Virus record (IMG/VR): IMGVR_UViG_2537561991_000021
Origin: a virus
Taxonomy: Duplodnaviria > Heunggongvirae > Uroviricota > Caudoviricetes
Length of the DNA stretch: 44,504 nt
Reading direction: 5' to 3' (one strand)
The translations under genes and the position numbers were made by a program. Shown here piece by piece: positions 1,021 through 44,504 of this stretch (position 1 is the first letter of the stretch; each line of letters opens with the position of its first letter). The notes beneath the pieces were generated by a model. That model made no database searches. It saw only the letters and a list, made by a program, of their open reading frames with translations, and was not told the DNA's origin.

Positions 1021-1039
1021 ATCCTCACTTTACAACGGG

Positions 1040-24418: not shown

Positions 24419-24445
24419 AATAAAAAAGGCCCCCTTGCGGAAGCC
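24419..24445 (-). terminator. second rho-independent terminator in the Q-to-holin region
   Basis: Minus-strand stem GGCTTCC-GCAA-GGGGGCC (two G-U pairs, GNRA-type loop) followed by TTTTTTATT. Confidence 0.55.
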
Positions 24446-24512
24446 TCTTCGTGATGAACTGTTTTCAACAGATATCAGGCTAATCGGCTTTTTGGAATTC
24501 CACAACTATTTT

Positions 24513-24853: not shown

Positions 24854-24884
24854 CTGGTTCCCTTACGTGATTGATTGCTGGATA

Positions 24885-25436: not shown

Positions 25437-25608
25437 CTGTACCAATCTGTACCCACCTGTACCAGCTCTTTTCAAACCTTTTCCCCAAGCGACTTATATA
25501 TATATATGGGGTTCTTAGTAATTAGGTTGGTACAGATGGTACAGTTGGTACTGACCTTTAAATTCAATTAGTTAAAATGTACCAACCTCTATTTTGAGGC
25601 TGGTACAG
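25437..25608. repeat. iteron-like heptamer array flanking a (TA)7 tract; candidate replication origin
   Basis: CTGTACC at 25437, 25447 and 25457 (10-bp phasing); (TA)n at about 25494..25507; inverted copies GGTACAG at 25529, 25539 and 25602, GGTACTG at 25548, TGTACC at 25578. Confidence 0.6.
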
Positions 25609-27781: not shown

Positions 27782-27784
27782 GGG

Positions 27785-27997
27785 TTAAGCCTTTTTATCG
27801 TTTTGTGAGCCATACAACAGCCAATTAGGGTCGCAATCCAATGCTATAGACATTTCAAGAAGATAACGTGGCCGAGCAATAACACCACTTTCAATTCTGT
27901 TTATTGCCTGCTGGCTCACTCCTGTGAGCTCAGCCAACGTAACTTGCGTCATTTTGAGTTCTTTACGTCGTTCTTTTACTCGGGTCGCTAAGGTCAT
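27785..27997 (-). CDS. Cro-like HTH (XRE family) regulator
   Basis: 70 aa from the ATG at 27997 with a GAGGTG RBS; HTH region QVTLAELTGVSQQAINRIESG; divergent from the CI-like gene. Confidence 0.75.
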   Translation of the reverse strand: MTLATRVKERRKELKMTQVTLAELTGVSQQAINRIESGVIARPRYLLEMSIALDCDPNWLLYGSQNDKKA

Positions 27998-28117
27998 TGC
28001 TTTCACCTCATACAATTTTAGTGGTATTTAGCAACAACAAATGAGGTTTGTCAAATACAACAAAAATTGTTTTTAATGTGGGTATACACATTAATACAAC
28101 CCAGAAGGACTAATCCC
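27998..28117. promoter_or_regulatory. divergent promoter/operator region of the immunity switch
   Basis: Inverted repeats ACAAA-N5-TTTGT (28037..28051) and ATACAA-N6-TTGTTT (28055..28072); TTGACA on the minus strand and TTGTCA-N18-TTTAAT on the plus strand. Confidence 0.55.
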
Positions 28118-28741
28118 ATGTCTCTCGCAGCCCGTTTTAAAGCACGTCGTTTGGAATTAGGAATGACTCAAGTGGAAGTAGCGAATTCTGCAGGGGTTAG
28201 CCAACAATCCATAGAATCCATCGAAAGTGGACGAACCAGAAAGCCACGCAATCTTCTGGATCTGGCTAAGGCCTTGAAATGTAGCCCAGACTGGCTACTG
28301 AACGGTAAAAATATTATGCCTCTCGCGGAGATAAGTACCAGACGCATACCTATATTAAGTTACGTTCAGGCAGGAGAGCTTACAGAAGCAAGAGACATAA
28401 CAGATCTGACAGGGGAATTTGAATATATTTTGGCAGACTCTGACATTCCAGAAACATGCTTCGCATTACGTATTGATGGCGACAGCATGCAACCAGAGTT
28501 TAAAGAAGGAGACATTGTTATCATCGATCCTGATCTATGTCCTGCACCAGGGGAGTTTGTTGTCGCCAAAAACGACGGTCACGAAGCTACATTTAAAAAA
28601 TACCGTCCATTAGGAATCGGCATCGACGACTTTGAATTAATCCCCCTAAATCCTGATTACCCTATTTTTCGTAGTGCAGATATGAACTTACAGATCATAG
28701 GTGTAATGATCGAACACCGTATTTACCGCCGTAAACGTTAG
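28118..28741 (+). CDS. CI-like repressor (HTH-XRE plus LexA-type S24 peptidase domain)
   Basis: N-terminal HTH (MTQVEVANSAGVSQQSIESIESG) and C-terminal autoprotease signature (GDSM...K). ATG at 28118 with an AGAAGGA RBS; the ORF track extends to 28067. Confidence 0.8.
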   Translation: MSLAARFKARRLELGMTQVEVANSAGVSQQSIESIESGRTRKPRNLLDLAKALKCSPDWLLNGKNIMPLAEISTRRIPILSYVQAGELTEARDITDLTGEFEYILADSDIPETCFALRIDGDSMQPEFKEGDIVIIDPDLCPAPGEFVVAKNDGHEATFKKYRPLGIGIDDFELIPLNPDYPIFRSADMNLQIIGVMIEHRIYRRKR

Positions 28742-28757
28742 TATTCCCACCGTAAAT

Positions 28758-28777
28758 ATCGGGAGGCGTAACAGCCT
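28758..28777 (+). terminator. hairpin after the CI-like gene (possible terminator)
   Basis: GGGAGGC-GTAACA-GCCTCCC stem-loop 17 nt after the stop; weak T-tract. Confidence 0.4.
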
Positions 28778-28867
28778 CCCTTACCCCATTTGTAAAGTCT
28801 TACAAATTAAATTCACTTAAATATCAATAAAGTAGTATTCACACCCCACAAAATACCACGTTTGCGG

Positions 28868-28896
28868 TTTACACAATACAACTCAAATTGTATCTT
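28868..28896 (+). promoter_or_regulatory. candidate early promoter with overlapping operator palindrome
   Basis: TTTACA-N17-TATCTT; the spacer carries the perfect inverted repeat ATACAA-CTCAAA-TTGTAT (28876..28893), related to the motifs in the cI/cro region. Confidence 0.5.
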
Positions 28897-29063
28897 TAGC
28901 CACAAGTCGAACGGCGCGACTCTAAACCATGCGTCGGGACCGTGGCGGGACAGGATGTCGGCAATACGGGTCAGTAAGTTCCCTTTGGGGTGCGGCGAAG
29001 CACTGCCTACTGATACAAGTCGAAGCCGCCGAACCACCAAAGTGAACTGAATGAGGAAACGGC

Positions 29064-29258
29064 GTGAAAACATATAAACCGCTCAAAGGTGAATGCCCTG
29101 CTTGCCAAACACAGCTTCAGACACCAAAGCCAAAACGATACCAAATCAACGAATGTTATGAGCACTGCCCTGGATGTGGTGCTTTCCTGCATACCATTGC
29201 AACGCACTGGCGTGTCCGCTTCAACCTTGTGGTACCACGTACGCACAATACCAACTGA
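29064..29258 (+). CDS. small zinc-ribbon protein, first gene of the early operon
   Basis: 64 aa, GTG start after a GAGGAAA RBS; Cys pairs CPAC and CPGC. Confidence 0.5.
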   Translation: MKTYKPLKGECPACQTQLQTPKPKRYQINECYEHCPGCGAFLHTIATHWRVRFNLVVPRTHNTN

Positions 29259-29289
29259 ATCATCCATGTAATTGCTGTGTGTAGTCTTT

Positions 29290-29316
29290 GCCCGCCGCAA
29301 GTGACGGGCTTTTTTA
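29290..29316 (+). terminator. rho-independent terminator / attenuator after the first early gene
   Basis: GCCCG...CGGGC stem (extendable) followed by TTTTTT. Confidence 0.5.
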
Positions 29317-29520
29317 TGTCTGAAAGCGCACTCGCAACAGCGCGCTCCCCGATATGAAAAAAGGAATACAACCGATGAAACCTGAACACCTCTATCGACT
29401 GACGGGGCGCGATGTTCTCCGTTATCGCCGTAAAAACTTCGATTTGATGACCGGTCTGGCCGTTGCCACTGCGCTCGGTCTGATCATCACTTTCATTCTC
29501 CTTGTTGCGAGGACCACAGT

Positions 29521-30423
29521 ATGAGTTTAGAAACCAGTCTCGAACTTAATAATCAACTTCTGGCACAACATAATGCGCTGCTTGAACGTCTTATCCGCAC
29601 AATGGCATCAGGTATTGTTATGCATCCTGACACGATTTCACGAGTGCAGGAATGTCGGGATACAGCAACTGAAACTGAAAATATGTCAGCGGCAATGACA
29701 CTGGATGATCTGGAGTTCAGCGACGTTATCGCACTGGCTGGTTTCTACCCGGTAGCCACCCCTATCACAGAAGACATGCTGCAACGTGCTGTTGCCTACC
29801 GTGATGCTGAAGGCGATAAACGAGTAGTTCAGATTGATCCTCTCGACAGCGCATTGCAGGGCGTCAAACGAGCCAGGGCACTGCATAAACCCGCTCTTCT
29901 GGACCTGTCCCGTAACATTCTTAAGTTCTGGGACGACCTGCCAACCATCGGCGAGCGACGTGCTTTTGCCGAGCAACTACTTGATGCACCTGCAGATGGG
30001 CGTGATGAAGTTAAGCCGAAAAAGGCCAGTAACAAAGATGGAGAACGCACGGGGCCGTTTTACGTCAAAAATGTATCCGGCACAGCAGCCAGTGAACTCC
30101 ACACCTTACGCAAGTTGAACGAGATGCTTAAAAAAGGCCATATCGAGATCAACCGTGTTGAGTACCTTCAGCTGCAGGAAGAATTTGCACGCAGAGACGC
30201 AGCAAATTCCAGCCAGAATAATGACGCCAAAGATGACCATACAATTGATTTCGCGGCACTACGCAAACAAGCTGAAGGGTTGATCCTCCAGTTAGCAAAA
30301 GGGGGTTACCGGGCAGAAGCTATTGCAATTCTGGAAAAACAGGGAGCCAGGAAACTTGGTGAAGTAACGGATGAAAATCTCGCTGAAGTAATCACCCTGG
30401 CTGAAAAAGCACTGGAGGGTTAA
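29521..30423 (+). CDS. hypothetical early protein
   Basis: 300 aa, ATG with a GAGGA RBS; no recognisable motif. Confidence 0.6.
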
Positions 30424-30425
30424 TC

Positions 30426-31727
30426 ATGCCAGACGTTCATGCACAACTTTCTCCATCATCAGCGCATCGATGGATGCGCTGCCCAGGAAGTCTGGCGCTG
30501 GAGGCCACACAACCGGATAAAGAAACAACTTTTGCAATCGAGGGCACTGCAGCGCACGCGCTTGCTGAAAAAGTTCTACGAAACAGGCAAAGCCACCCGG
30601 AACACTACGCCGGATGCAATGTTTCTATGTTTCTCGGCTCATACCCCCTTCGCGAAAATCCTGATGATACATCTGGCCCACAGGTGGATGATGAAATGGT
30701 CGAAGCCGTTGGCCGGTATGTTGATACGGTCTGGACTCTTGCACAGAATAATGAACTATTGGTTGAACAACGTGTTGATTTCTCACATATAACGGGGGTG
30801 GAAGAATCTTTCGGAACTGCCGACGGCATAATCATCGCTGGTAACGAATTACAAATCCACGACCTGAAATATGGCAAAGGCGTCCGCATTGATGCAGAAC
30901 AAAATGAGCAACTACAACTGTATGCTCTGGGTGCGCTCGAACAATTCAGCATGCTGTATGACTTTGAGACTGTAAGATTATTTATTCACCAGCCAAGGCT
31001 CAACCACGTTTCAGAATGGTCGTTAACCGTACAGGAACTTCAGTCTTTCGGTGAACGGGCACAGGAGGCCGCAACCAGTGCGATCCTTGTTCTCAATATT
31101 GCTGAATGCGAAGGCATTGAGACACTACCGCTGGAAAACTTCATACCTGGAGAAAAACAGTGCCGCTTCTGTAAAGCAAAAGCTATTTGCACTGCCCAGA
31201 AAATGCAGCATTTACAAACAGCGGCCAGCGATTTTGAAGATCTGACAAAGCCTGTCAGCGAAATAATCACCAATGCCAGCGCACGTGTACCTCTGTTAAC
31301 CATTGAGCAGCTTGCGGAGATCTATAGCCAGGCCGACTTTATTGAATCCTGGCTAAAGGCAGTACGGGACCGGGTTCACAATGAACTCAATGCCGGACAT
31401 CCGGTACCGGGGTTTAAACTGGTAACAGGAAAACAAGGTAACCGGGCCTGGAGTGATGAAGAGGCAGCTCGCGCACTTCTGAAGGACCAGTTCAGGTACA
31501 AAACTGAAGAAGTATTCGACTTTAAACTTATTAGTCCCACAAAAGCCGAAAAACTTATCAAAAAGGCCAGTCCACGCCGTTGGTCAAAAGTCGAGGCACT
31601 GATAACACGAGCTGATGGTAAACCAACCGTCATTCCCGAGTCAGACCCACGCCCCGCACTCAATATCAACCCTGTAAATGATTTCGACGACGTATCCGAC
31701 GATACGCTAACCGCAGACCTCATCTGA
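30426..31727 (+). CDS. PD-(D/E)XK nuclease, Cas4-like with Fe-S cysteine cluster
   Basis: 433 aa; N-terminal Cys (RCPGS) plus C-terminal [10 protein letters not shown], the spacing seen in Cas4/AddB-type nucleases; located upstream of the SSB-like gene. Confidence 0.65.
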
Positions 31728-31742
31728 TTTAAGGAAATACCC

Positions 31743-32102
31743 ATGAAACTGAAGCTGAACAATGTTCGTCTGGCCTTCCCGTCTCTGTTTGAAGCTAAAA
31801 CTGTAAACGGCGAAGGCGATCCGCGTTTCTCCGCAGTATTTTTAATGTCTCCCAAACACCCACAACTGGAAGAAATCCGTAAAGCTATGAAGCAGGTAGC
31901 GAAGGAAAAATGGGGAGAGAAGTGGGAGCCCATTTATAACCAGCTGGAGAAAAAACTCAATCTGTGCCTGCATGATGGTGATGAAAAAGCAGAGTATGAA
32001 GGCTTCCCCGGTAATTTCTTCCTGAATGCTGCTAACAAAGCGCGCCCAGCTGTTCTTGATCGCGATCGTTCGCCACTTATTCAGGCTGACGGACGTCCCT
32101 AT
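31743..32102 (+). pseudogene. putative ssDNA-binding protein, 5' part (split by IS insertion)
   Basis: Reading frame runs into the IS end at 32103 (GTAAGCG); continues in frame at 35642. Confidence 0.6.
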
Positions 32103-32174
32103 GGTAAGCGTACAGCCTGAACCGTCTGGTCAGAATCTGACGAATTAGACAAAGTGGTGTCCACCAAATAAGTA

Positions 32175-32576
32175 GTGGGAACCAAAGTATCAGATATGCA
32201 GAAAAATGTGACTCCCGGCAGGCGAAAAGGCTGCCCTAATTATCCTCCCGAATTTAAACAGCAGCTCGTTGCTGCCTCCTGTGAACCCGGGATATCCATC
32301 TCAAAACTTGCTCTTGAAAATGGCATTAACGCCAATCTGTTGTTCAAATGGCGACAACAATGGCGCGAGGGAAAGCTGCTATTACCTTCTTCAGAGAGCC
32401 CCCAGCTACTTCCTGTGACTCTCGATGCAGCTGCCGAACAGCCAGAATCGCTCGCAGAGGACCCGGAAACCCTCAGTATCAGCTGTGAGGTAACGTTCCG
32501 GCACGGGACGCTCCGCTTCAATGGCAATGTCAGCGAAAAGCTCCTGACTCTGCTGATACAGGAACTGAAGCGATGA
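32175..32576 (+). CDS. IS66-family orfA (short form)
   Basis: 133 aa; GINANLLFKWRQQWREGKLL region shared with the longer orfA-like proteins. Confidence 0.75.
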   Translation: MGTKVSDMQKNVTPGRRKGCPNYPPEFKQQLVAASCEPGISISKLALENGINANLLFKWRQQWREGKLLLPSSESPQLLPVTLDAAAEQPESLAEDPETLSISCEVTFRHGTLRFNGNVSEKLLTLLIQELKR

Positions 32577-32920
32577 TCCCGTTACCTTCCGGGACCAAAA
32601 TTTGGCTGGTTGCCGGTATCACCGATATGAGAAATGGCTTCAACGGCCTGGCTGCGAAAGTACAAACGGCGCTGAAAGACGATCCCATGTCCGGCCATGT
32701 TTTCATTTTCCGGGGCCGCAGCGGCAGTCAGGTTAAACTGCTGTGGTCCACCGGTGACGGACTGTGCCTCCTGACCAAACGGCTGGAGCGTGGGCGCTTC
32801 GCCTGGCCGTCAGCCCGTGATGGCAAAGTGTTCCTTACGCAGGCGCAGCTGGCGATGCTGCTGGAAGGTATCGACTGGCGACAGCCTAAGCGGCTGCTGA
32901 CCTCCCTGACCATGCTGTAA
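32573..32920 (+). CDS. IS66 Orf2-like accessory protein (TnpB)
   Basis: 115 aa, clearly related to the orfB at 33672..34019. Confidence 0.8.
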   Translation: MIPLPSGTKIWLVAGITDMRNGFNGLAAKVQTALKDDPMSGHVFIFRGRSGSQVKLLWSTGDGLCLLTKRLERGRFAWPSARDGKVFLTQAQLAMLLEGIDWRQPKRLLTSLTML

Positions 32921-32994
32921 ATCTCTTTATCCTGGTTGTCAGTAACCGGCTCATTTAAACCGTCTGGTCTGTTTCCTCCGGCTCTACAAAAATA

Positions 32995-33672
32995 ATGTCC
33001 ATCATTTTTAATGGACACTATCGTATGAAACACCGGACCTGGATCACTGAAGCTTTACGTCTTCACTTTGAAGAACATTTACCCCGGGTTGTGGCCGGGC
33101 GTCGCCTGGGTGTACCAAAATCAACAGTTTGTAGTATGTTCGTGCGCTTTCGGAGAGCTGGCCTTTCGTGGCCTTTGCCCGCAGGCATGTCGGAGCAGGA
33201 ACTTGATGCCTGCCTTTACGGACAATTTTCCACGGTACCAGTCGTACGTCCTGAAAGCACCGTTATATCCGAAGCCCCCGTGGTAAAAAAACGTCCCCGG
33301 CGGCCCAACTTCCCTTATGAGTTTAAAATCGCCTTAGTGGAGCAGTCACTGCAGCCCGGAGCCTGTGTGGCGCAGATCGCCCGGGAAAACGGAATCAACG
33401 ATAACCTGCTCTTCAACTGGCGCCATCAATACCGGAAAGGTGGCCTGCTGCCTTCCGGAAAAAATATGCCGGCACTGCTTCCCGTGACGTTAACGCCGGA
33501 GCCGGATAATAAAATCCCGGCCCCCGCACAGGAACCAGAGCAGATAAATACACCGTCCGACAGTCTGTGTTGTGAGCTGGTTCTGCCGGCCGGAACTCTC
33601 AGGCTTAAAGGTAAACTGACGCCGGCGTTATTACAGACACTTATCCGCGAAATAAAAGGGAGCAGCCACTGA
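32995..33672 (+). CDS. IS66-family orfA-like protein with N-terminal HTH
   Basis: 225 aa, about 97% identical to 1387..2064. Confidence 0.8.
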   Translation: MSIIFNGHYRMKHRTWITEALRLHFEEHLPRVVAGRRLGVPKSTVCSMFVRFRRAGLSWPLPAGMSEQELDACLYGQFSTVPVVRPESTVISEAPVVKKRPRRPNFPYEFKIALVEQSLQPGACVAQIARENGINDNLLFNWRHQYRKGGLLPSGKNMPALLPVTLTPEPDNKIPAPAQEPEQINTPSDSLCCELVLPAGTLRLKGKLTPALLQTLIREIKGSSH

Positions 33673-34019
33673 TGATATCTCTCCCTGCAGGTTCGCGTAT
33701 CTGGCTGGTTGCAGGTATCACCGATATGCGAAATGGCTTTAACGGCCTGGCATCAAAAGTTCAGAACGTCCTGAAGGATGACCCGTTCTCCGGACACCTG
33801 TTCATCTTCCGCGGACGCCGGGGTGACCAGATAAAAGTGTTGTGGGCTGACAGTGACGGACTGTGCCTCTTCACCAAACGCCTGGAGCGGGGCCGCTTCG
33901 TCTGGCCAGTCACCCGTGACGGCAAGGTGCACCTTACTCCGGCTCAGTTATCCATGCTTCTTGAAGGTATCAACTGGAAGCACCCGAAACGAACGGAACG
34001 CGCTGGAATCCGCATATAA
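33672..34019 (+). CDS. IS66 Orf2-like accessory protein (TnpB)
   Basis: 115 aa, identical to 1040..1387. Confidence 0.85.
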   Translation: MISLPAGSRIWLVAGITDMRNGFNGLASKVQNVLKDDPFSGHLFIFRGRRGDQIKVLWADSDGLCLFTKRLERGRFVWPVTRDGKVHLTPAQLSMLLEGINWKHPKRTERAGIRI

Positions 34020-34038
34020 CCCGTTGTAAAGTGAGGAT

Positions 34039-35610
34039 ATGGACACCTCACTTGCTCATGAGAACGCCCGCCTGCGGGCACTGTTGCAGACGCAACAGGA
34101 CACCATCCGCCAGATGGCTGAATACAACCGCCTGCTCTCACAGCGGGTGGCGGCTTATGCTTCCGAAATCAACCGGCTGAAGGCGCTGGTTGCGAAACTG
34201 CAACGTATGCAGTTCGGTAAAAGCTCAGAAAAACTTCGTGCAAAAACCGAACGGCAGATACAGGAAGCACAGGAGCGAATCAGCGCACTTCAGGAAGAAA
34301 TGGCGGAAACGCTGGGTGAGCAATATGACCCGGTACTGCCATCCGCCCTGCGCCAGTCTTCAGCCCGTAAACCGTTACCGGCCTCACTTCCCCGTGAAAC
34401 CCGGGTTATCCGGCCGGAAGAGGAATGCTGTCCTGCCTGTGGTGGTGAACTCAGTTCTCTGGGATGTGATGTGTCAGAGCAACTGGAGCTTATCAGCAGC
34501 GCCTTTAAGGTTATCGAAACACAACGTCCGAAACAGGCCTGTTGCCGGTGCGACCATATCGTGCAGGCACCAGTACCTTCAAAACCCATTGCACGCAGTT
34601 ATGCCGGAGCGGGGCTTCTGGCCCATGTTGTCACCGGGAAATATGCAGACCATCTGCCGTTATACCGCCAGTCAGAAATATACCGTCGTCAGGGAGTGGA
34701 GCTGAGCCGTGCCACACTGGGGCGCTGGACAGGTGCTGTTGCTGAACTGCTGGAGCCGCTGTATGACGTCCTGCGCCAGTATGTGCTGATGCCCGGTAAA
34801 GTCCATGCTGATGATATCCCCGTCCCGGTCCAGGAGCCGGGCAGCGGTAAAACCCGGACAGCCCGGCTGTGGGTCTACGTCCGTGATGACCGTAACGCCG
34901 GTTCACAGATGCCCCCGGCGGTCTGGTTCGCGTACAGTCCGGACCGGAAAGGTATCCATCCACAAAATCACCTGGCCGGTTACAGCGGTGTGCTTCAGGC
35001 CGATGCTTACGGTGGTTACCGGGCGTTATACGAATCCGGCAGAATAACGGAAGTCGCGTGTATGGCTCATGCCCGGAGAAAAATCCACGATGTGCATGCA
35101 AGAGCGCCCACCTACATCACCACGGAAGCCCTGCAGCGTATCGGTGAACTGTATGCCATCGAGGCAGAGGTCCGGGGCTGTTCAGCAGAACAGCGTCTGG
35201 CGGCAAGAAAAGCCAGAGCCGCGCCACTGATGCAGTCACTGTATGACTGGATACAGCAACAGATGAAAACACTGTCGCGTCACTCAGATACGGCAAAAGC
35301 GTTCGCATACCTGCTGAAACAGTGGGATGCACTGAACGTGTACTGCAGTAATGGCTGGGTGGAAATCGACAACAACATCGCAGAGAACGCCTTACGGGGA
35401 GTGGCCGTAGGCCGGAAAAACTGGATGTTCGCGGGTTCCGACAGCGGTGGTGAACATGCGGCGGTGTTGTACTCGCTGATCGGCACATGCCGTCTGAACA
35501 ATGTGGAGCCAGAAAAGTGGCTGCGTTACGTCATTGAACATATCCAGGACTGGCCGGCAAACCGGGTACGCGATCTGTTGCCCTGGAAAGTTGATCTGAG
35601 CTCTCAGTAA
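34039..35610 (+). CDS. IS66-family transposase TnpC
   Basis: 523 aa with leucine-zipper-like N-terminus and CPACGG...CxxC zinc motif; right inverted repeat 30 bp downstream. Confidence 0.85.
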
Positions 35611-35641
35611 ATATCAATACGGTTCTGACGAGTCGCTTACT

Positions 35642-35836
35642 CCCTATGCAGGGTGCTATGTAAACGCCGTTATCGATATCTGGGCACAGGACAATAATTT
35701 CGGTAAACGCATTAATGCCTCACTCGGCGGAGTCCAGTTCCTGCGAGACGGCGATGCATTCGCTGGCGGCGGAGTGGCAAGCGCTGACGATTTCGACGAT
35801 ATCAGCGAAGGTGCTGATGCTGAAGCACTAATTTAA
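35642..35836 (+). pseudogene. putative ssDNA-binding protein, 3' part
   Basis: In-frame continuation after the IS, ending in an acidic tail (ADDFDDISEGADAEALI) typical of SSB C-termini. Confidence 0.6.
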
Positions 35837-35888
35837 CCCTACTTCATAGACGCCCGGTTAAACACCGGGCTACTGATTAGGCGTATAA

Positions 35889-36518
35889 TCACTCAGGAAT
35901 CTTAATCTTTCTCAATTCTTTATTTAGTTCACAGTTCTTTTTCTTAGACGGGAAAGTATCATACATCCAAAAACCAACAGTCTCTAAAACTATTATCATA
36001 ACCATATACACAAGATAATTTAAAAGGCCTTCATTTTGCCCTATGGAAATAATGCAGATAATAGAAAAAAGGGTAAACAGCACAAAACACAGAAAGGAAA
36101 ACAGACGACTAATAATAAATAAAAAACCTGAAAAATCAACATTAATAAAAAACACTCCGTTATCTTTCTCTATATAATTCTGAAGCTTAATCAACTGATT
36201 TATATACTGTCTTTTTTCTAATCTATTGCAAATGTAAATAACATCTCTTCGGTTATAAGATGATTGCAATTTCAGCGCATCACGAATAATTTTATCATTT
36301 ATTCTTTTTTCTATGGCACTCTTATCCTCCTCATCCAGATAACGTTCATACTTAACTAAATATAAAATTAACTTCTTAACATATTTAGGCTCTTTATACT
36401 TATAATTAAAAATGATCTTTCTTATCCAGACTCCCATAACAATCAAACATGAAAAAATATATCCAGCTATTTTCTCCAGATGCTCTGTATGGTCAATCAA
36501 GTATTGGATCATATGCAT
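35889..36518 (-). CDS. AT-rich hypothetical membrane protein, antisense to the early operon
   Basis: 209 aa, Lys/Ile/Tyr/Asn-rich, with hydrophobic helices (IFSCLIVMGVWI, FLFIISRLFSFLCFVLFTLFSIICIISI, YLVYMVMIIVLETVGFWMY); GC far below flanking phage genes. Confidence 0.65.
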   Translation of the reverse strand: MHMIQYLIDHTEHLEKIAGYIFSCLIVMGVWIRKIIFNYKYKEPKYVKKLILYLVKYERYLDEEDKSAIEKRINDKIIRDALKLQSSYNRRDVIYICNRLEKRQYINQLIKLQNYIEKDNGVFFINVDFSGFLFIISRLFSFLCFVLFTLFSIICIISIGQNEGLLNYLVYMVMIIVLETVGFWMYDTFPSKKKNCELNKELRKIKIPE

Positions 36519-36564
36519 AATTAATCTTTTAATCAGTTAATAGAATAAAAACCAAGGTAAACAC

Positions 36565-38628
36565 ATGTCCAATATACTATGGGGCGACCTGGAAACCTAT
36601 TGCGAAATCCCTATTACGAACGGTACCCATGCGTATGCCGAAGGCGTTGAAGTGATGCTTTTCGCATGGGCTATCAACGACGGGCCAGTAAACGTGTGGG
36701 ATATCACTGCCGGTGGTGGTATTCCACACGGCTTATACGAAGCAATCGCAGACCCTGAAACCCTGCTTTATTTCCATAACTCTCACTTCGACCGCACCGT
36801 TCTGCGTTATGCAATGCCGCGCCTGGCACCGCCAGTCGAACGTTGGCGCGACACAATGGTGCAGGCGCTGGCGCACGGTCTCCCGGGGTCTCTGGGGGAA
36901 CTCTGCGAAGTACTAGGCGTCCCGCAAGACAAAGCGAAGGACAAAGAAGGTAAAGCGCTGATCCAGCTGTTCTGTAAGCCACGCCCGAAAAACAGCAAAC
37001 TGCGCCGGGCCACCAGCAAAACCCACCCGGAAGAATGGCGGCGCTTTGTTGCTTACGCCGGACTGGATATCGAGGCAATGCGCGAAGTCTATAAACGTCT
37101 GCCGAAGTGGAATTATCAGGGGACAGAACTGGCGCTCTGGCATCGTGATCAGCAGATCAATGACCGGGGCGTCTGCATGGACGTGGAACTCGCACGCGCT
37201 GCGATCGACGCGGTAGACCAGGAACAAAAGCGCCTGGCAAAGCGTACACAGGAAATGACTGATGGCGAAGTGCAGGCAGCCACACAACGAGACGCGTTGA
37301 TTAAGCACATTGTTGAATCCTACGGTGTGGAGCTACCAGACATGCAACGCAGTACTCTGGAACGTCGTATTGCCGACCCCGATTTACCATCTGCCGTGAA
37401 AGAACTGCTGGCTATCCGCCTGCAGGCCAGTACTACCAGCACCAGTAAATACAAGGCACTGATGAAAGGCGTAAGCCACGACGGGCGCTTACGCGGTACG
37501 CTACAGTTCTGCGGGGCGTCACGTACCGGTCGTTGGGCCGGACGGCTATTCCAGCCCCAGAACCTTCCCCGCCCTTCACTAAAACAGGAACAAATAGACG
37601 AAGGCATCGAAGCACTGAAAGCCGGATGTGCAGACCTGCTGTTTGACAATATCATGGAACTAACCAGTTCAGCGTTACGTGGCTGCATTATCGCGCCAAC
37701 AGGCAAAAAGCTGGTGGTAAGTGACTTGTCGAACATTGAAGGCCGTATGCTGGCATGGCTGGCGGGAGAAGAATGGAAACTGAATGCATTCAGAGAGTAC
37801 GACGCCGGAACGGGTCCGGACTTATATAAACTGGCGTATGCAAAAGCTTTCGATATTGCACCAGATGATGTTGATAAACACATGCGTCAGATCGGTAAAG
37901 TCATGGAACTCGGTCTGGGTTATGGTGGTGGTGTGTCGGCCTTCATCACTTTTGCACTGGTTTACGGTCTCGATCTCGACGAGCTGGCGAACGCCGCACT
38001 ACCAAACATTCCCCGCGATGTTATCCGCGAGGCGAAAAGCTGGTACGACGAATCGGTTAAACGCAAGTCAACCTACGGGCTTTCTGAACGGGTATTTATC
38101 GCCTGCGACTCACTTAAACGTCTCTGGCGCCGGGCGCATCCCGCGACCTGTGATTTCTGGTACGAACTGGAGCGCACCGTCCGCACTGCAATCGCCACAC
38201 CGCAAAAAACATTGTATTGCGGTTATCTTAAAATCCGCCGCGATGGCGCGTGGCTGCGCATACAGCTACCATCCGGACGCGCTGTATGCTACCCGTCTCC
38301 GGTTATCGAAAAAGGGAATATCACCTACATGGGGGTTAACTCTTATTCGCGTAAATGGCAACGACTCAAAACCTACGGCGGAAAGCTGGTGGAGAACATC
38401 ACCCAGGCGGCCGCCCGCGACATTCTGGCCGGAAACATGCCGCTTATCGAAGATGCCGGTTACAGCATTGTGCTGACGGTACACGACGAGGTGATCACCG
38501 AAGCACCTGACACAGAAGATTTCAACGATAAAGCGCTTTCCGCGCTTCTCTCCACTGACCCCGAATGGGCGCCCGATATCCCACTGAACGCTGGCGGTTT
38601 TGAGGCGTACCACTACAAAAAAGATTGA
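36565..38628 (+). CDS. family A DNA polymerase with 3'-5' exonuclease domain
   Basis: Exonuclease motifs [23 protein letters not shown]; polymerase motif A DLSNIEGR, motif [17 protein letters not shown], motif C VHDEV. Confidence 0.9.
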
Positions 38629-38692
38629 TATAACTCACCTTATCGAGCTATGGCGACATGCTGAATTCGAGTAAATTAAAGGAACAATACTT

Positions 38693-39454
38693 ATGCAGGA
38701 ACTAACTGAAATGCCGATCACCTATCCATACCCGAGAGAAACTTTTCCTGACTTTTTGAGGGAGTGTGGGTTCACCAATTTTTCCCACGAACAGCGTGAG
38801 ACTTGTGACTGCTATCGTTTAACGAATGGCGTAATTGTTAACCTTTACACCACCCGGACCATTCAGTTTCAAGGTAACCCTCAAGAACGTCCCAATGTTG
38901 AAACTGCAATAATGACCCATTTAGGAACGCCGCCCACGGCAACACCACTAGCCGTAGAACAGCCATCTGAGCTCCCCAAAAAGATATTCATTGTTCACGG
39001 CCATGACCATACTGCAAAGGAGCAACTTGAGCTAATCCTTCATAAACTTGGATTACCAGACCATTTCATTTTGCAGAATACGGGAGGGACTGGACTCACC
39101 ATTATTGAAGAGCTTGAACGTGAAATTGGGCAAGGACAAACTGCTACCCGTTTCGGGATTGTTCTTTTGACACCTGATGATATGGGATACTCAAAGCGCG
39201 CCGGTGAAGCAGAAATCCAACCCCGCGCAAGACAGAACGTTGTACTCGAGATGGGTATGCTTCTTTCGTCCTTAGGGCGCAGCAATGTAGCAATCCTTCA
39301 GAAACAGCACCTAGAACAGCCTTCTGATGCTAACGGGATTTTGTATCTGAATTTCAACGACCATGTACGTGAAACAGTTCCTCGTCTAGTGCAACGGTTA
39401 CAAAATTCTGGTTTCGAATTTACACAAGCTCAAATAGCTAACGCTTCCTCGTAA
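38693..39454 (+). CDS. TIR-like domain protein (predicted nucleotide-binding TIR-like fold) with a unique N-terminal domain
   Basis: 253 aa; C-terminal region KIFIVHGHDH...GIVLLTPDDMG...ARQNVVLEMGMLLSSLGRSNVAILQ...PSDANGILYL matches the recalled consensus of the TIR-like nucleotide-binding family. Lower GC than neighbours; own RBS and terminator. Confidence 0.6.
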   Translation: MQELTEMPITYPYPRETFPDFLRECGFTNFSHEQRETCDCYRLTNGVIVNLYTTRTIQFQGNPQERPNVETAIMTHLGTPPTATPLAVEQPSELPKKIFIVHGHDHTAKEQLELILHKLGLPDHFILQNTGGTGLTIIEELEREIGQGQTATRFGIVLLTPDDMGYSKRAGEAEIQPRARQNVVLEMGMLLSSLGRSNVAILQKQHLEQPSDANGILYLNFNDHVRETVPRLVQRLQNSGFEFTQAQIANASS

Positions 39455-39477
39455 TTACCCCTTATTGTTGATTACAA

Positions 39478-39502
39478 CCCTGCATCGCGGGGTTTTTTAT
39501 TT
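39478..39502 (+). terminator. rho-independent terminator after the TIR-like gene
   Basis: CCCTGC-ATC-GCGGGG stem (one G-U pair) followed by TTTTTTATTT. Confidence 0.7.
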
Positions 39503-39517
39503 GGGAATAAAAACCCT

Positions 39518-39652
39518 ATGTCATTTAAATACCGGGACAGTCCGCTTTATTACCGGACTGTGCGGGAGGCTTTGCACCTTGAACAGTCCGGCGGGTACGA
39601 CCGGGCGATGCAGGTCTGGGCCAAAGCGAACGTCGGTTTGATTTTTGTCTGA
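39518..39652 (+). CDS. small hypothetical protein (44 aa)
   Basis: ATG ORF MSFKYRDSPLYYRTVREALHLEQSGGYDRAMQVWAKANVGLIFV between the terminator and the zinc-finger gene; below the ORF-track cutoff. Confidence 0.3.
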   Translation: MSFKYRDSPLYYRTVREALHLEQSGGYDRAMQVWAKANVGLIFV

Positions 39653-39688
39653 TGCAGAACATGCGCGAAAAGCGTAAGGAGGTGGACG

Positions 39689-39883
39689 ATGTCTAATATC
39701 GATAATAAGGGTTGGGGGTTCCCCGCTCTGTCAAAAAAAGCACATTTCTTTAATTCGGGGGAAGCCATATCACTATGCGGAAAATGGATGTTCATAGGTA
39801 TCAGGATTGATGAATGGCATGACCATCCTGAGAACTGCGCTATCTGCATGAAGAAACGCAAAAAGCAGGAAGGCGAAAGCTAA
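39689..39883 (+). CDS. small zinc-finger-like protein
   Basis: 64 aa with a strong AAGGAGG RBS; Cys/His cluster (C...HDHPENCAIC); stop overlaps the VRR-NUC start (TAATG). Confidence 0.55.
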   Translation: MSNIDNKGWGFPALSKKAHFFNSGEAISLCGKWMFIGIRIDEWHDHPENCAICMKKRKKQEGES

Positions 39884-40170
39884 TGGCCTATGAACGTGAA
39901 AACCTAATCGAAAAGCACCTCGTCGCTGAAGTAAAAAAGGCTGGCGGGGTTGCCTTTAAGTTCGTATCCCCCGGTCGCCGCTCGGTACCAGATCGCATTG
40001 TTCTGCTACCCGGCGGTCGTATCATTTTCGTTGAATGTAAATCCCCCGGCAAGCCACCACGGCCTGACCAGTTGCGCGAACACGGACGGTTGCGCGCGCT
40101 GGGCTTTACCGTAGTGGTGCTGGATAGCAAAAATCTGGAGGCCATTATTTTAAGCCGCAATAAAGGATAA
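39883..40170 (+). CDS. VRR-NUC domain nuclease
   Basis: 95 aa; PD-(D/E)XK-type residues in DRIVLLPGGRIIFVECKSPGK, as in VRR-NUC proteins. Confidence 0.7.
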   Translation: MAYERENLIEKHLVAEVKKAGGVAFKFVSPGRRSVPDRIVLLPGGRIIFVECKSPGKPPRPDQLREHGRLRALGFTVVVLDSKNLEAIILSRNKG

Positions 40171-40182
40171 AAGACTTATGCT

Positions 40183-40980
40183 TTAATCCGTATTTTTAAC
40201 ACGTATTTCGAAACACCCTTTTAATTTAGCTATTTCCTTTTTAGAGGACATGATTGTGAATCTCATCCCTTTTAAATCATTAACAAATTCAAATTTTGCG
40301 CTATTTGACTCACAATCACCAACAACAAAACCACTACCAAATGAATTGAGCAACACTTTAGTATTACTACCATCTACCATATAATATTCGTTATTTTTAA
40401 ATGCAGTAACCTTCCCGAATGTATAGCTCAATATCAACAACGTTATCACCCCTAAAGGAAAAGCTGACTTTAGGATTTTTAAATCGATATAATAAAATAC
40501 GTTCTTATACTCTGCAAGCCTCCCAAATTTTCTAATGCTCTCCATATGATGTTCGTGTCTCTTACTATGGATTGGCATGGACACCACATTGTGATAATTC
40601 AACAAAAGCATAGCAAATAATAAAATATCCTGAACACTCATCACAGAAGTTTCGGAGAAATAACCAAAAGGCCAATGAAATCCTATTATACAAATATTAG
40701 CCATTAGCATAACAACTATAAATACAATAAATGGAACATAATATTTCCCTTTCAAATCAAACATCAACGCCGCATATAAGGCGCCGAGAAATAAAAAACT
40801 AAAAAACAAAAGCCACACAGCCGAATACAATAGCGTATTTAAGTCTATTTTAATAAAAAGGTCTGGATAGCCATAATACGATGCAACACCTTTCTGAAAA
40901 GAATATGCCATCGCATAAGCTAACGCTGAAAACATAGTTAATAAAGAAACTTGCTTTGTAAATATTTTCGCCAGGGGCAT
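40183..40980 (-). CDS. AT-rich polytopic membrane protein with C-terminal soluble domain, antisense to the early operon
   Basis: 265 aa; strong GGAGG RBS; five or more hydrophobic helices in the N-terminal 150 aa and a soluble C-terminal domain of about 110 aa; very low GC. Confidence 0.65.
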   Translation of the reverse strand: MPLAKIFTKQVSLLTMFSALAYAMAYSFQKGVASYYGYPDLFIKIDLNTLLYSAVWLLFFSFLFLGALYAALMFDLKGKYYVPFIVFIVVMLMANICIIGFHWPFGYFSETSVMSVQDILLFAMLLLNYHNVVSMPIHSKRHEHHMESIRKFGRLAEYKNVFYYIDLKILKSAFPLGVITLLILSYTFGKVTAFKNNEYYMVDGSNTKVLLNSFGSGFVVGDCESNSAKFEFVNDLKGMRFTIMSSKKEIAKLKGCFEIRVKNTD

Positions 40981-41043
40981 ACCCGCCTCCGTTAGTTATA
41001 TATATAGAGAGAGAAGTGACCATATTCTACCATAGGTGTATTA

Positions 41044-42438
41044 ATGAATAGCATATTCCACCCCAGAGTTTATCAAAACCTCATAATCAATCACCAAACT
41101 AACATTCTGCGCGGCAACATCTGGGCGGGTATGGGAATGGGTAAAACCGTGGCAACGCTCACTGCGCTGGAAGATCTCTTTATGGCAGGGGCAGAAACAT
41201 GCCCCGCACTGGTCCTCGCGCCGCTGCGCGTGGCTGCCAGCACATGGCCGGATGAAGCACTGAAGTGGGGACATTTGCGCAATATCGAGGTGCAGCCAAT
41301 TATTGGTAATGCCAAAGCGCGCTCTATGGCGCTGACGAACAGCAACGCAAGCGTGTTCACCATCAACTACGATAACCTTGTCTGGCTGATTGAAGAATTG
41401 GGAGAACGATGGCCGTTCGGTACTGTCATTCCAGATGAAAGCACCCGGCTAAAATCCTTCCGGCTGCGCGGTGGTGGTAAGCGCGCGGCGGCGCTGGGCA
41501 AAGTGGCGCATAAGTATGTCCGGCGCTGGATAAATCTCACCGGTACGCCAGCACCGAACGGCCTGGTAGATTTGTGGGGACAATCGTGGTTTGTGGACCA
41601 GGGGCAACGTCTCGGGCGCACTTACGGCGCGTTTACCTCACGCTGGTTCAACTCGATACAGTTTCCGGGGCAGAGCTGGACCAAACTGGAGCCTTTTGCT
41701 CACTCACAGGGTGAAATACAGCGAGCGTTAGCCGATGTAACCCTCTCGCTGGATGCGGCCGACTGGTTCGATATCAAAGACCCCATCCATAACGTAATCC
41801 GCGTGGATATGCCACCGAAGGCCCGTCAGCAGTATCGTGAAATGGAAAAGGAAATGTTCCTCGAGCTGAATGGCGAAGGCATCGAAGCACCGAACGCCGC
41901 GGCAAAGACACTGAAGTGTCTGCAAATCGCCAGCGGCGCAGTATACACAGATGACACCGGAAGTTGGTCAGAACTGCATGACACCAAACTACAGGCGCTG
42001 GACAGCATACTGACCGAAGCAGCTGGCGCACCTGTGCTGGTTGCTTATCACTGGAAACACGATCTTGAACGCTTGCTTAAAGCATTCCCTCGCGGTCGTC
42101 ACCTCGACCAGGATCCACAGACACTGCGCGACTGGAATTCCGGAAAGATTCCTGTTCTCTTTGCACACCCAGCCAGCGCGGGCCACGGCCTGAACATGCA
42201 GGACGGCGGAAATATACTGGTATTTTTCTCACACTGGTGGGACCTGGAGCAATATCAGCAAATTATTGAACGTATCGGCCCCACCAGGCAGATACAGGCC
42301 GGACACAATCGTCCGGTATTTATTCACCACATTATTGCTGCCGACACTATGGATGAAATGGTGATGGAGCGGCGCAACTCAAAACGAACAGTGCAGGACA
42401 TCCTGCTCGATGCCATGAAAAAGAGAGGTATAGCATGA
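41044..42438 (+). CDS. SNF2/DEAD-like superfamily II helicase
   Basis: Walker A GMGMGKT, DExx box VIPDESTRLK, C-terminal helicase motifs (GHGLNMQ, QIIERIGPTRQ). Confidence 0.8.
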   Translation: MNSIFHPRVYQNLIINHQTNILRGNIWAGMGMGKTVATLTALEDLFMAGAETCPALVLAPLRVAASTWPDEALKWGHLRNIEVQPIIGNAKARSMALTNSNASVFTINYDNLVWLIEELGERWPFGTVIPDESTRLKSFRLRGGGKRAAALGKVAHKYVRRWINLTGTPAPNGLVDLWGQSWFVDQGQRLGRTYGAFTSRWFNSIQFPGQSWTKLEPFAHSQGEIQRALADVTLSLDAADWFDIKDPIHNVIRVDMPPKARQQYREMEKEMFLELNGEGIEAPNAAAKTLKCLQIASGAVYTDDTGSWSELHDTKLQALDSILTEAAGAPVLVAYHWKHDLERLLKAFPRGRHLDQDPQTLRDWNSGKIPVLFAHPASAGHGLNMQDGGNILVFFSHWWDLEQYQQIIERIGPTRQIQAGHNRPVFIHHIIAADTMDEMVMERRNSKRTVQDILLDAMKKRGIA

Positions 42439-42635
42439 GCGAGAAACCCGACGATTTACTCACCCCGGATGAAGTATGCCAAAAGTTAGGTATTACACAG
42501 AAAACGCTATGTGAGTGGAATATTAAGCATCGTCATCGGGCTATCCTGGCACCAATTCGTTTCAGTGCAAAAGTAGTTCGTTATGAGCGCCGAAATATCG
42601 ACGCTTTTATTCAAAAATGTCGCAGCCAGTATTAA
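42435..42635 (+). CDS. xis: excisionase / AlpA-like DNA-binding protein
   Basis: 66 aa; LLTPDEVCQKLGITQKTL HTH with downstream basic region; last gene of the early operon, converging on the integrase. Confidence 0.6.
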   Translation: MSEKPDDLLTPDEVCQKLGITQKTLCEWNIKHRHRAILAPIRFSAKVVRYERRNIDAFIQKCRSQY

Positions 42636-44035
42636 CCTCGCCGCCGTAGCAATGCCACCTGCGCAAGTATGCTCCGCTCGTGAGCCTCGAAAGCTTCGCG
42701 CTTCAACGCAATCTCTTCCTGTAAAATCTCATCAGAAAAGTCGTAATGTTCTGCCATCGGGTCATCTGACTTGCTGGAGTGGTGAAGGCAAAGGAGGCTG
42801 ATTTCCCTTCGGTCTGAGCGGGAATAGCCTCTTTCCTTCATCAAGGCAATAACATTGCTCTTAAGGAATTTACGGCACATCGTATTAAATGCACCGTCTT
42901 TCCCTTTAACAGTCCCATCATGTTTTATTCCTTTTACAGCCCCGTCCGGGCTGTATGTTTTCACCAGCTTATCCAGTGATCGTTTTGAAAATGGCTGCAT
43001 TGGATCACGTGGCTGCAAAAATACATAATCCCTGTTGCACTCAGGAACTGAATCACGCCAGGCTTTCTGCTCGTCGATAATCCGCCGGATCTCAGGGGTT
43101 ATCGGCAGGCGGAAAGCCTTTTGTGTTTTCATAGCCCCTCGCATGCCGATAACCCCTTCCGGATAAACAATTTCACCAGCCTCCTCGTGAACGTAGTCCC
43201 AGCGCAGGTTATGGACATTAATCGGACGAACACCAGTGATGATCATGAAGCGAACAGCATTCTTCTGGTGTACAGAGGTGCAGGCAGCAACATTGAGCCA
43301 GAGTCGGGCGATTGATTCAATATCGGTAAAAAGCCGTGTGGGGGTAGGTTTCTGTACGCGGGAGGAAACATAATCATCTGGCAGACTGGCGGCAACATTG
43401 CGGCCGTTGCAAAGAGTAGGTGCGCAGAACTTCCAGAACCGACGGAGCTCGGCAAACAACTCCAGGGCGTTATTGTTCGAGCGAGTAGCGATCCACTCGT
43501 CCAGCACTTCCACCAGCCGATTGTATGTTACGTCGCTGAACACCTCGCGCTCGCCGAACGTTGCTTTAATCCGGTCGATACGCACCCCGTAGGTTGTGAA
43601 ACTGTCCGGGCTCAGCTTCTGCCGGGCGACTTTGGCTTTGAGGTCATCCCGGTACATTTCCAGCGCTGCATGTACGGACTCTGCCCGCAGGCCACCGTCA
43701 GCCATACCTAGCGCTTTTTCGCGCGCCAGCTGGATAGCGAGCTCCGGCCACTCGCCGAGCTTTTTACCTTTGAGGCCCATCTTTTTTGGAAACTCGGCGT
43801 AAAATGTAACCTTACCGGCTTTGCTGAAATCGATACGGAGATAGTTCTCTTTTTCGTATTTGGAACGGCGAGCCACGCCGGAAGCAGCGAGGATGATTTT
43901 GGCGGCAGCAACACAGATTTTCATGTGTGCGCTAGTATAGGGGGGTTTACAGGCGTCCCATTTTTCAGAAGCGGCTAAAACATCGTCATTATTGGGGCTA
44001 TCCGGATTATGTGTTACAGTGCGCGGCATTCTCAA
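42632..44035 (-). CDS. int: tyrosine-type site-specific integrase
   Basis: C-terminal catalytic region (GVRPINVHNLRWDY, LLCLHHS, EHYDFS) with a candidate arm-binding N-terminal domain. The ORF-track start is TTG; the true start is probably an internal ATG. Confidence 0.75.
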   Translation of the reverse strand: MRMPRTVTHNPDSPNNDDVLAASEKWDACKPPYTSAHMKICVAAAKIILAASGVARRSKYEKENYLRIDFSKAGKVTFYAEFPKKMGLKGKKLGEWPELAIQLAREKALGMADGGLRAESVHAALEMYRDDLKAKVARQKLSPDSFTTYGVRIDRIKATFGEREVFSDVTYNRLVEVLDEWIATRSNNNALELFAELRRFWKFCAPTLCNGRNVAASLPDDYVSSRVQKPTPTRLFTDIESIARLWLNVAACTSVHQKNAVRFMIITGVRPINVHNLRWDYVHEEAGEIVYPEGVIGMRGAMKTQKAFRLPITPEIRRIIDEQKAWRDSVPECNRDYVFLQPRDPMQPFSKRSLDKLVKTYSPDGAVKGIKHDGTVKGKDGAFNTMCRKFLKSNVIALMKERGYSRSDRREISLLCLHHSSKSDDPMAEHYDFSDEILQEEIALKREAFEAHERSILAQVALLRRRG

Positions 44036-44234
44036 TCCTTATCTGCGTAGGCGCAGAAAACAAGCTCACACATACAAGTCTTTTCTACGGGACAAAATGC
44101 AATGTGTTGCGGTTTAGTGTTGCTGGACTGAGTTTATCAAGGTTAAATACACTGGATCAACATACAGTAAGTTAATGACAGTAAAGCATACAAACTCGAT
44201 ACAACTTACTGATTTTAAAATGATTTAACGGTAA

Positions 44235-44504
<270 letters not shown>

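Follow-up and report, generated by a model that had tools for sequence, protein, structure and literature searches.

Cassette sites and an IS66-family insertion in the BPP-1/APSE-type early region of an Escherichia coli prophage

Do three additional genes set among the replication genes of a temperate phage belong to that set, or do they occupy sites where the gene content changes from phage to phage? The question is raised by a 44,504-nucleotide stretch of Caudoviricetes DNA (IMG/VR record IMGVR_UViG_2537561991_000021; hereafter the window), and within it by positions 29,521 to 42,438. The window is a prophage of E. coli that has inserted next to yfhL; its right end carries a tyrosine integrase gene, after which host yfhL follows. 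A reading made from the letters alone (the original prediction) had described the interval as a self-encoded replisome module on the repressor-side operon of a temperate contractile-tailed phage, with three inserted cargo genes and with the primase and candidate origin on the opposite operon. Our comparison makes it very probable that the interval is the early-left (lambda-PL-like) operon, that it carries a replication set of the BPP-1/APSE/YeP4 type together with three cassette sites, and that this copy of it is interrupted by an insertion sequence (IS).

Three variable junctions between conserved genes

The comparison drew on 100 related loci: 80 viral contigs, 10 annotated regions of E. coli and 10 regions of other genera (among them Trabulsiella, Pectobacterium, Pluralibacter, Morganella, Serratia and Limnobaculum). 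Gap statistics and architectures were compiled for 87-95 of these loci, which comprise 81 distinct polA sequences. Two junctions served as controls. Between the gene for a conserved 300-residue protein and the DUF2800 nuclease gene, the gap is 5 bp in 73 of 79 loci and about 500 bp in the other six, which carry homing-endonuclease-sized inserts; between the DUF2800 gene and the gene for the protein that binds single-stranded DNA (SSB), it stays at about 18 bp (range 17-44 bp in 85/85 loci). The gap at the SSB/polA junction (slot A, 91 loci) ranges from 88 to 4399 bp, with 20 architectures and 33 empty sites. The polA/VRR-NUC junction (slot B, 95 loci) spans 218-2225 bp with 38 architectures, only 2 of the loci being empty, and the VRR-NUC/SNF2 junction (slot C, 95 loci) spans -1 to 2418 bp with 30 architectures and 12 empty sites. 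Slots A and C are both empty in E. coli B379, where slot B holds only a small ANR regulator gene. The three slots are thus accessory hotspots in the usual sense: fixed sites with many alternative contents, next to junctions that do not vary.

The edges of the variable segments are sharp and recurrent. In window coordinates, homology breaks off at 35836-35870 and 36565-36586 around slot A, at 38616 and 39883 around slot B, and at 40130-40141 and 41070-41080 around slot C. These breakpoints lie inside or at the ends of core genes, and the families of open reading frames (ORFs) found between them are almost entirely slot-specific. Together, the two observations indicate that cassettes are exchanged through homologous recombination within the core genes on either side, and they speak against transposition as the means by which the cargo moved. 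The three core-gene junctions would serve as cassette sites, with accessory genes swapped by recombination at recurrent boundaries.

All three cargo ORFs lie where the original prediction had placed them, and its proposal that their positions are variable hotspots is borne out by the synteny comparison, in which the three slots vary and the control junctions stay fixed. Nor is any of the three genes universal: of the loci scored, about 12 of 91 have cargo1 (slot A), 27 of 95 have a member of the TIR family (slot B) and 6 of 95 have cargo3 (slot C). Their description as inserts needs one amendment. The contents are variable as expected, but cargo1 and cargo3 are not random arrivals, since they recur by superfamily at the same slot in distant relatives, such as those from Morganella and Serratia.

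In slot B of the window (Table 1), the TIR-domain protein matches the PADLOC model PDC-S35 over its full length (6.8e-109, residues 10-253 of 253), its TIR domain being of the CAP12/Pycsar type; PDC systems are candidate defence models and not validated ones. Directly after this gene, inside the operon, stands a strong terminator-like hairpin (39476-39494) with a T-run extending to 39502. The ANR-family gene that follows is frameshifted here and intact in 55/95 relatives; a minus-strand ORF at 39550-39861, which overlaps this pseudogene, was rejected as a gene. The slot A and slot C genes are encoded antisense to the operon, at GC contents of 29% (cargo1) and 33% (cargo3) versus 49-54% for the backbone, and the product of each is a predicted multi-pass membrane protein. 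A promoter-like site precedes cargo1 at 36571-36542; this protein is a near-orphan with three homologue clusters, and it matches nothing in Pfam or PADLOC. For cargo3 there are seven homologue clusters, all unnamed, and no match in Pfam, PHROG or PADLOC. A low-confidence structural model of cargo3 (8 sequences; predicted local distance difference test score, pLDDT, of 47) returned no Foldseek match at E <= 0.001 against PDB and BFVD.

Profile comparison connected each of the two proteins with four further membrane families of its own slot (A for cargo1, C for cargo3), with near full-length alignments, probabilities of 68-98% and no similarity across slots. These superfamily links are provisional, as transmembrane composition can inflate such scores. 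Counted in this way, cargo1-type genes occur in 23/91 loci and cargo3-type genes in 15/95, Morganella- and Serratia-derived loci included.

The cargo of the relatives is broad. Slot A carries Nmad5, SIR2 (sense strand; PADLOC PDC-S25, 3.8e-158), SPFH, DUF4145 and Bro/Ant proteins, and slot B carries ANR, DUF4406, TIR, HNH, a GHKL ATPase and a PAPS-reductase-like protein. In slot C we found BstA (1.4e-115), frequently accompanied by a Dcm methylase, as well as PDC-S42, DUF6338, Arc/Rha/Ant regulators and SprT-like proteins. Where all three slots could be scored (87 loci), 37 loci have one or more genes recognised by PADLOC. The abortive-infection role of the prophage protein BstA has been validated by experiment (PMC8585504). 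We found it between VRR-NUC and SNF2 (locus L004, 11337-13282; locus L037, 12805-13737), whereas its published context is downstream of the prophage repressor. Orientation also divides the cargo: antisense families have a lower GC content (median 0.37 vs 0.48 for sense families, p = 0.015), and two or more transmembrane helices occur only among them (11/24 vs 0/20).

What the cargo does for its carrier can be read in two ways. If the slots hold genes of benefit to the phage in its lytic cycle (DNA modification, counter-defence, lysis-lysogeny regulators), the window cargo would serve the phage's own replication and not the lysogen. The sense-strand cassettes of relatives (Nmad5, DUF4406, Dcm, PAPS-reductase-like proteins, HNH endonucleases and Rha/Ant/Bro antirepressors) fit such a role, as does the position of the TIR gene on the operon strand. 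We nonetheless find it doubtful for the window, where cargo1 and cargo3 are antisense, very AT-rich membrane proteins of the kind typical of independently expressed morons, where the TIR protein matches a candidate defence model from end to end, and whose relatives carry BstA in the same antisense orientation and a sense-strand SIR2/PDC-S25 gene in slot A.

We favor instead a set of window cassettes made up of one candidate defence gene, the TIR protein, and two AT-rich antisense membrane proteins that the lysogen most likely expresses. Judged by where they lie, their strand, their base composition and their neighbours, the latter two would be exclusion or abortive-infection genes. More tentatively, and with rather less confidence than we would place in an even guess, cargo1 and cargo3 may represent two undescribed, fast-diverging families of this kind, each tied to one slot across the BPP-1-type phages of Enterobacterales. 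Were this true, the BPP-1-type replication operon would be a scaffold for defence genes comparable to the P2 hotspots.

Two points weigh against a defence role. Many cassettes are antirepressor or DNA-modification genes, and the slots are accessory-gene sites in general, not defence sites specifically. In addition, cargo1 and cargo3 match no defence model, and structure prediction and fold searches for cargo3 assigned nothing to it. The slots nevertheless define three cassette sites where defence genes, both validated (BstA) and candidate (SIR2, TIR, PDC-S42), have uncharacterised genes as neighbours, and from these a small set of genes can be picked out as candidates for new anti-phage functions. 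The polymerase gene of this prophage type is found in 159 of 5,426 complete E. coli genomes (about 3%).

An IS66-family hybrid in the SSB gene

The replisome module is not intact, and here the original description does not hold. A hybrid element of the IS66 family, overlooked at the time, interrupts both the SSB gene and the operon, and its five ORFs occupy 27% of the interval. All five replisome genes that had been named are indeed found at their predicted positions by Pfam and PHROG matches, the SSB-like protein only as a truncated remnant. Its 5' ORF consists of 120 native codons and five IS-derived codons (125 in total) followed by a stop, as compared with 182 residues in the intact protein. 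An IS-free version of the window sequence is present in E. coli FDAARGOS_1059 (locus L001), with flanks that are 100% and 99.98% identical; the empty site there, itself 100% identical, holds an intact 182-residue SSB allele with the acidic tail DDFDDISEGADAEALI. The window protein, which ends after residue 120, is therefore a disrupted member of its family. The truncation removes 62 residues, comprising part of the oligonucleotide-binding (OB) fold and the acidic C-terminal tail, so that the window copy lacks the complete OB-fold domain plus acidic tail of its family. Earlier work has described the Enc34 SSB and what its acidic tail does (PMC5686142).

The first 838 bp of the hybrid form an ISEc8-like left end with tnpA and tnpB, and the remainder is a complete 2,699-bp ISCro1-like IS with tnpA, tnpB and tnpC. 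Membership of the IS66 family follows from tnpA, tnpB and a DDE tnpC, from terminal inverted repeats starting with GTAAGCG and from an 8-bp target duplication. This duplication, TCCCTATG, lies at 32096-32103 and 35641-35648; because it flanks the hybrid as a whole, it suggests that the element transposed as one unit, with its left end from one IS66 member and its right end from another. Among the matches listed in other E. coli genomes, the same two IS parts are adjacent, but in the chromosomal matches they span 3,812 bp. The insertion at the SSB site was found in none of the other complete E. coli genomes of the collection searched. Window positions 1-2117 hold another ISCro1-like copy, which is in the opposite orientation and cut by the left end of the window; its identity to 32942-35055 is 98.8%. 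The two inverted copies bracket about 30 kb of the prophage and could mediate its inversion.

Since the IS truncates the SSB and splits the operon, the prophage would be expected not to replicate or excise normally. This copy would have lost its own SSB/annealase, and 3.5 kb of IS sequence would be polar on polA, VRR-NUC, SNF2 and the excisionase gene. Thus, the prophage copy is probably defective for replication and excision, and its lysogen-expressed cargo probably stays intact. A fully functional prophage would require that the truncated or the host SSB is enough and that the IS supplies outward transcription. SSB residues 1-120 do keep much of the matched Pfam region, and the IS genes share the orientation of the operon. 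Set against this are the extent of the SSB loss, the most likely polar effect of the IS on downstream genes, and the uniqueness of the insertion among complete E. coli genomes, which fits a recent and possibly disabling event; we consider full function unlikely. Partial replacement of the truncated protein by host SSB might still soften the defect, and this counts against a complete loss of function.

On the reading of a grounded prophage, the window is a clear-cut case of prophage domestication at an early stage, in which a recent IS66 insertion probably disabled the prophage and spared the cargo expressed in the lysogen. The same prophage in E. coli ETEC H10407 (locus L005) has a frameshifted polymerase gene and an internal stop in the SNF2 helicase gene. 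These lesions show the replisome module decaying independently in a different lineage.

Control and content of the early operons

Table 1. Features of the window between the candidate origin and the integrase gene
Feature	Coordinates	Strand	Evidence or description
Iteron cluster, candidate replication origin	25437-25618		Straddles the VapE stop codon
VapE/D5-type primase-helicase, 730 residues	25589-27781	minus	Second cro-side gene; Pfam VapE-like 2.3e-60
Cro-like helix-turn-helix (HTH) gene	27785-27997	minus	Pfam HTH_3 2.1e-14; start from RefSeq (L001)
Operator-like palindrome, cro/repressor gap	28010-28027		ATACAA-N6-TGGTAT
Operator-like palindrome, cro/repressor gap	28055-28072		ATACAA-N6-TTGTTT
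LexA/S24-type prophage repressor	28118-28741	plus	Pfam Peptidase_S24 2.3e-21 and HTH_3; RefSeq: LexA family protein
Putative PL-like early promoter	28868-28896	plus	TTTACA-17-TATCTT
Zn-ribbon ORF, 64 residues, unannotated	29064-29258	plus	Sequence (CPAC..CPGC); weak Zn-ribbon Pfam matches
49-residue membrane peptide and conserved 300-residue protein	29375-30423	plus	First annotated operon genes; phrog_6784
DUF2800 PD-(D/E)XK exonuclease, Cas4/AddB-type 4-Cys motif	30426-31727	plus	Pfam DUF2800 1.4e-109, PDDEXK_1
Gp2.5/Enc34-type SSB gene, 5' part	31743-32120	plus	Pfam Enc34_ssDNA-bd profile positions 1-115 of 176
IS66-family hybrid element, 3,537 bp	32104-35640	plus	Pfam IS66 domains, empty-site comparison, ends, duplication
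SSB gene, displaced 3' part (codons 119-182, acidic tail included)	35641-35836	plus	Alignment to L001 5697-5892
cargo1, slot A, 209-residue membrane protein (~3-4 transmembrane helices)	35889-36518	minus	phrog_10579
Family-A DNA polymerase with 3'-5' exonuclease motifs	36565-38628	plus	Pfam DNA_pol_A, PHROG, motifs, PDB Pol I matches
Slot B cargo, 253-residue TIR-domain protein	38693-39454	plus	Pfam CAP12-PCTIR_TIR (PF10137) 2.9e-31; PADLOC PDC-S35
Frameshifted ANR-family regulator pseudogene	39518-39696	plus	RefSeq on identical L001 sequence; 84% match to intact ANR genes
64-residue ORF	39689-39883	plus	RefSeq on identical L001 sequence
VRR-NUC nuclease	39883-40170	plus	Pfam (weak), phrog_93 8e-31, D37..E51xK53
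cargo3, slot C, 265 residues, ~5 transmembrane helices and C-terminal beta domain	40183-40980	minus	
SNF2-family helicase	41044-42438	plus	Pfam SNF2-rel_dom, phrog_62 6e-154
Excisionase-like HTH_17 gene	42435-42635	plus	Pfam
Tyrosine integrase	42632-44035	minus	Adjoins host yfhL; Pfam, RefSeq context in L001

Besides the two palindromes between cro and the repressor gene (whose longest ORF starts at 28067), a third and best operator copy, ATACAA-N6-TTGTAT, is found at 28876-28893, about 130 bp past the repressor stop and between the hexamers of a promoter-like site. The pattern extends to relatives. In five immunity types (the window and four others), type-specific 16-mers from the cro/repressor gap recur with one or two mismatches about 70-150 bp after the repressor stop, against a chance expectation of at most about 0.04 matches per comparison. 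Because immunity-specific operator motifs recur downstream of the repressor, the data support a separate, repressor-controlled early-left promoter resembling lambda PL. When the S24/LexA-type repressor is inactivated, this promoter would transcribe the operon.

The original prediction had implied instead a single operon in which the repressor and the replisome genes are transcribed together. The genes do share the repressor strand, and RefSeq annotates no opposite-strand gene in the 630-bp gap downstream of the repressor (a minus-strand ORF at 28813-29073, which lacks RefSeq annotation and overlaps the operator and promoter, was rejected). A GC-rich hairpin at 28761-28780 follows the repressor stop, however, and the operator copy that overlaps the promoter-like site has its counterparts in all five immunity types. 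By analogy with lambda biology, constitutive polymerase, exonuclease and excisionase would also be deleterious in lysogens. We therefore judge a single operon without its own early promoter very unlikely.

Several observations complicate the model of a separate promoter. A scan for consensus promoters and terminators found sites no more numerous than in shuffled sequence, and individual sites are used here only where operator repeats give independent support. A terminator-like hairpin with T6 at 29290-29316, ahead of the first annotated genes, and the one at 39476-39502 would block a simple single transcript; they hint at antitermination or internal promoters. The Zn-ribbon ORF, which has a good ribosome-binding site, is located after the PL-like promoter and ahead of the first annotated gene; together with the hairpin region (29064-29316) it may be a regulatory or antitermination element. 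An Rfam scan of 27700-44504 returned no family at threshold.

The operon would provide a T7-like set for DNA metabolism. The DUF2800 protein has the sequence hallmarks of Cas4/AddB enzymes, namely an N-terminal cysteine (C19), a C-terminal CxxCx5C motif (C246-x2-C249-x5-C255), a PD-(D/E)XK core (D..DLK) and a QxxxY motif (QLQLY). It is a predicted Cas4-like Fe-S exonuclease, with both the 4Fe-4S cluster and the activity predicted, and it is 46% identical to BPP-1 Bbp38 and 56% to APSE P51; a sequence search against solved structures in PDB gave a chance-level match only. This exonuclease and the Gp2.5-type SSB/annealase would act together as a recombinase pair. The operon would also supply a proofreading family-A polymerase, a VRR-NUC branch nuclease, an SNF2 helicase and the excisionase. 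In the polymerase, all exonuclease motifs (ExoI D8xE10, ExoII N72..D76, ExoIII Y164xxxD168) and all polymerase motifs (A, D387; B, R441..K445..YG; C, H640DE) are intact, as required for a proofreading family-A enzyme, and identity to BPP-1 Bbp42 is 67%. Identities to the BPP-1 and APSE proteins are 49-68% for VRR-NUC and 66-74% for the SNF2 helicase.

The polymerase gene is enlarged in two relatives, to 944 residues in E. coli RMDEC465 (locus L010, 8585-11419) and 993 in APSE-2 (locus L104, 4504-7485). The match to the window polymerase is split in two in both, as would fit an insertion of an intein or HNH gene. In loci L003 and L010, moreover, otherwise invariant junctions contain homing-endonuclease genes (HNH/NUMOD4). 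The 300-residue protein at the start of the operon has 586 homologues, every one annotated as hypothetical, and its C-terminus resembles APSE P53. It has no PDB relative in a sequence search of solved structures, and a low-confidence model (27-sequence alignment, pLDDT 60) gave no Foldseek match at E <= 0.001 against PDB and BFVD.

On the cro side, the primase/initiator and candidate origin are found as had been proposed. The VapE protein has PHROG matches to a primase at its N-terminus and a helicase at its C-terminus, and the iteron cluster consists of at least eight direct and inverted copies of TGTACCNACCT. This cluster is a candidate replication origin, and the divergent cro operon would supply VapE to act on iterons lying just downstream of its own gene. 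After the HTH gene, the order is VapE, iterons, Q antiterminator (24885-25307), holin and terminase; Q, lysis and myovirus late genes follow VapE. Between Q and the holin gene, about 800 bp (24086-24884) contain small ORFs only. Toxin cassettes of Stx phages and APSE occupy the matching position.

The split layout among known phages

The original prediction was right to place a replisome and recombination module, encoded by the phage itself, on the repressor side. The split, thought unusual relative to lambda-type organisation, is no oddity: it is conserved in all of about 90 relatives, the related loci fetched all having the backbone on the repressor strand and VapE on the opposite strand. 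It is moreover published for BPP-1, APSE, YeP4, BcepC6B and Xfas53, among whose early modules synteny has been described (PMC8579659). The duf2800-gp2.5-polA module has likewise been described (PMC8093625). As an architecture, it is textbook-level for BPP-1/APSE-type phages, and little changes there.

By polymerase identity, the closest described phages are Yersinia YeP4-6 (73%), Bordetella BPP-1, BMP-1 and BIP-1 (67%) and Hamiltonella APSE (61-65%), with BcepC6B and Xfas53 also in this group. Searches with the window proteins (tblastn) showed the same gene order, strands and split in BPP-1 and APSE-2, at 46-74% protein identity. Downstream of an S24-type repressor, the window has the exonuclease, Gp2.5 SSB, PolA, VRR-NUC, SNF2 and xis/int genes of this type, and beside cro, on the divergent operon, it has VapE and Q, where BPP-1 likewise has its primase/ATPase beside cro (bbp29-31). 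In APSE, P3 and P5 are on the cro-side operon, with Q after the primase (PMC8579659). From its sequence, the window's early region is a further example of this known type. Three deposited phages, vB_EcoM-606R2, vB_EcoM-611R5 and vB_EcoM-689R2, are about 98% identical to the window over the early region; literature searches for these names and for PDC-S35 gave nothing.

Across the group formed by BPP-1 (Rauchvirus), APSE (Sendosyvirus), YeP4-6, BcepC6B and Xfas53, the shared order is S24 repressor, genes of unassigned function, DUF2800, SSB, PolA, VRR-NUC, SNF2, xis and int, and the proteins are 57-73% (PolA), 66-74% (SNF2) and 55-66% (SSB) identical to those of the window. Variation upstream of the polymerase gene has also been noted for APSE (PMC8579659). 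The window differs from the group in its cassettes, its inverted integrase gene and its yfhL integration site, and above all in its virion. The phages of the group are podoviruses, whereas the late genes of the window specify, besides a portal, a terminase and a major head protein, a tail sheath, a tape measure and the hub and wedge of a baseplate. Sheath, baseplate and tape measure indicate a contractile tail and set the virion apart from the podoviruses Rauchvirus and Sendosyvirus; with the S24 repressor and integrase, they agree with the temperate, contractile-tailed phage originally predicted. The genome is thus a mosaic of a BPP-1/APSE-type early region joined to myovirus late genes.

Temperate phages of Firmicutes (for example Streptococcus Javan633 and Staphylococcus SH-St 15644) and the Enc34 module share the DUF2800, Gp2.5/DUF2815, PolA, VRR-NUC, SNF2 and VapE families, at 31-46% identity to the window (PMC8093625; PMC5686142). 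Javan633 and SH-St 15644 carry the whole set, primase included, as one cro-side operon, whereas the window, BPP-1 and APSE split it across the immunity switch. Only in comparison with these Firmicute phages is the split unusual.

Lambda itself offers a close parallel. Its PL side has an exonuclease/annealase pair (exo, bet), with xis/int at the far end, under an operator-controlled promoter, and its PR side has cro, an initiator with the origin (O, P), Q, lysis and late genes. The differences are that lambda borrows the host replisome, whereas the PL-like operon of the window has a polymerase gene of its own, along with those for VRR-NUC and the SNF2 helicase, and that no N homologue was identified in the window, unlike lambda. 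The cassette sites, in turn, resemble the hotspots of P2/P4 and the cI-N region of lambdoid phages (rexAB or bstA), which also combine fixed positions with highly diverse content, including validated and candidate defence genes. They differ from both in that a BPP-1-type early region carries them within its replication operon, and in that two of the three slots hold slot-specific, divergent superfamilies of membrane proteins.

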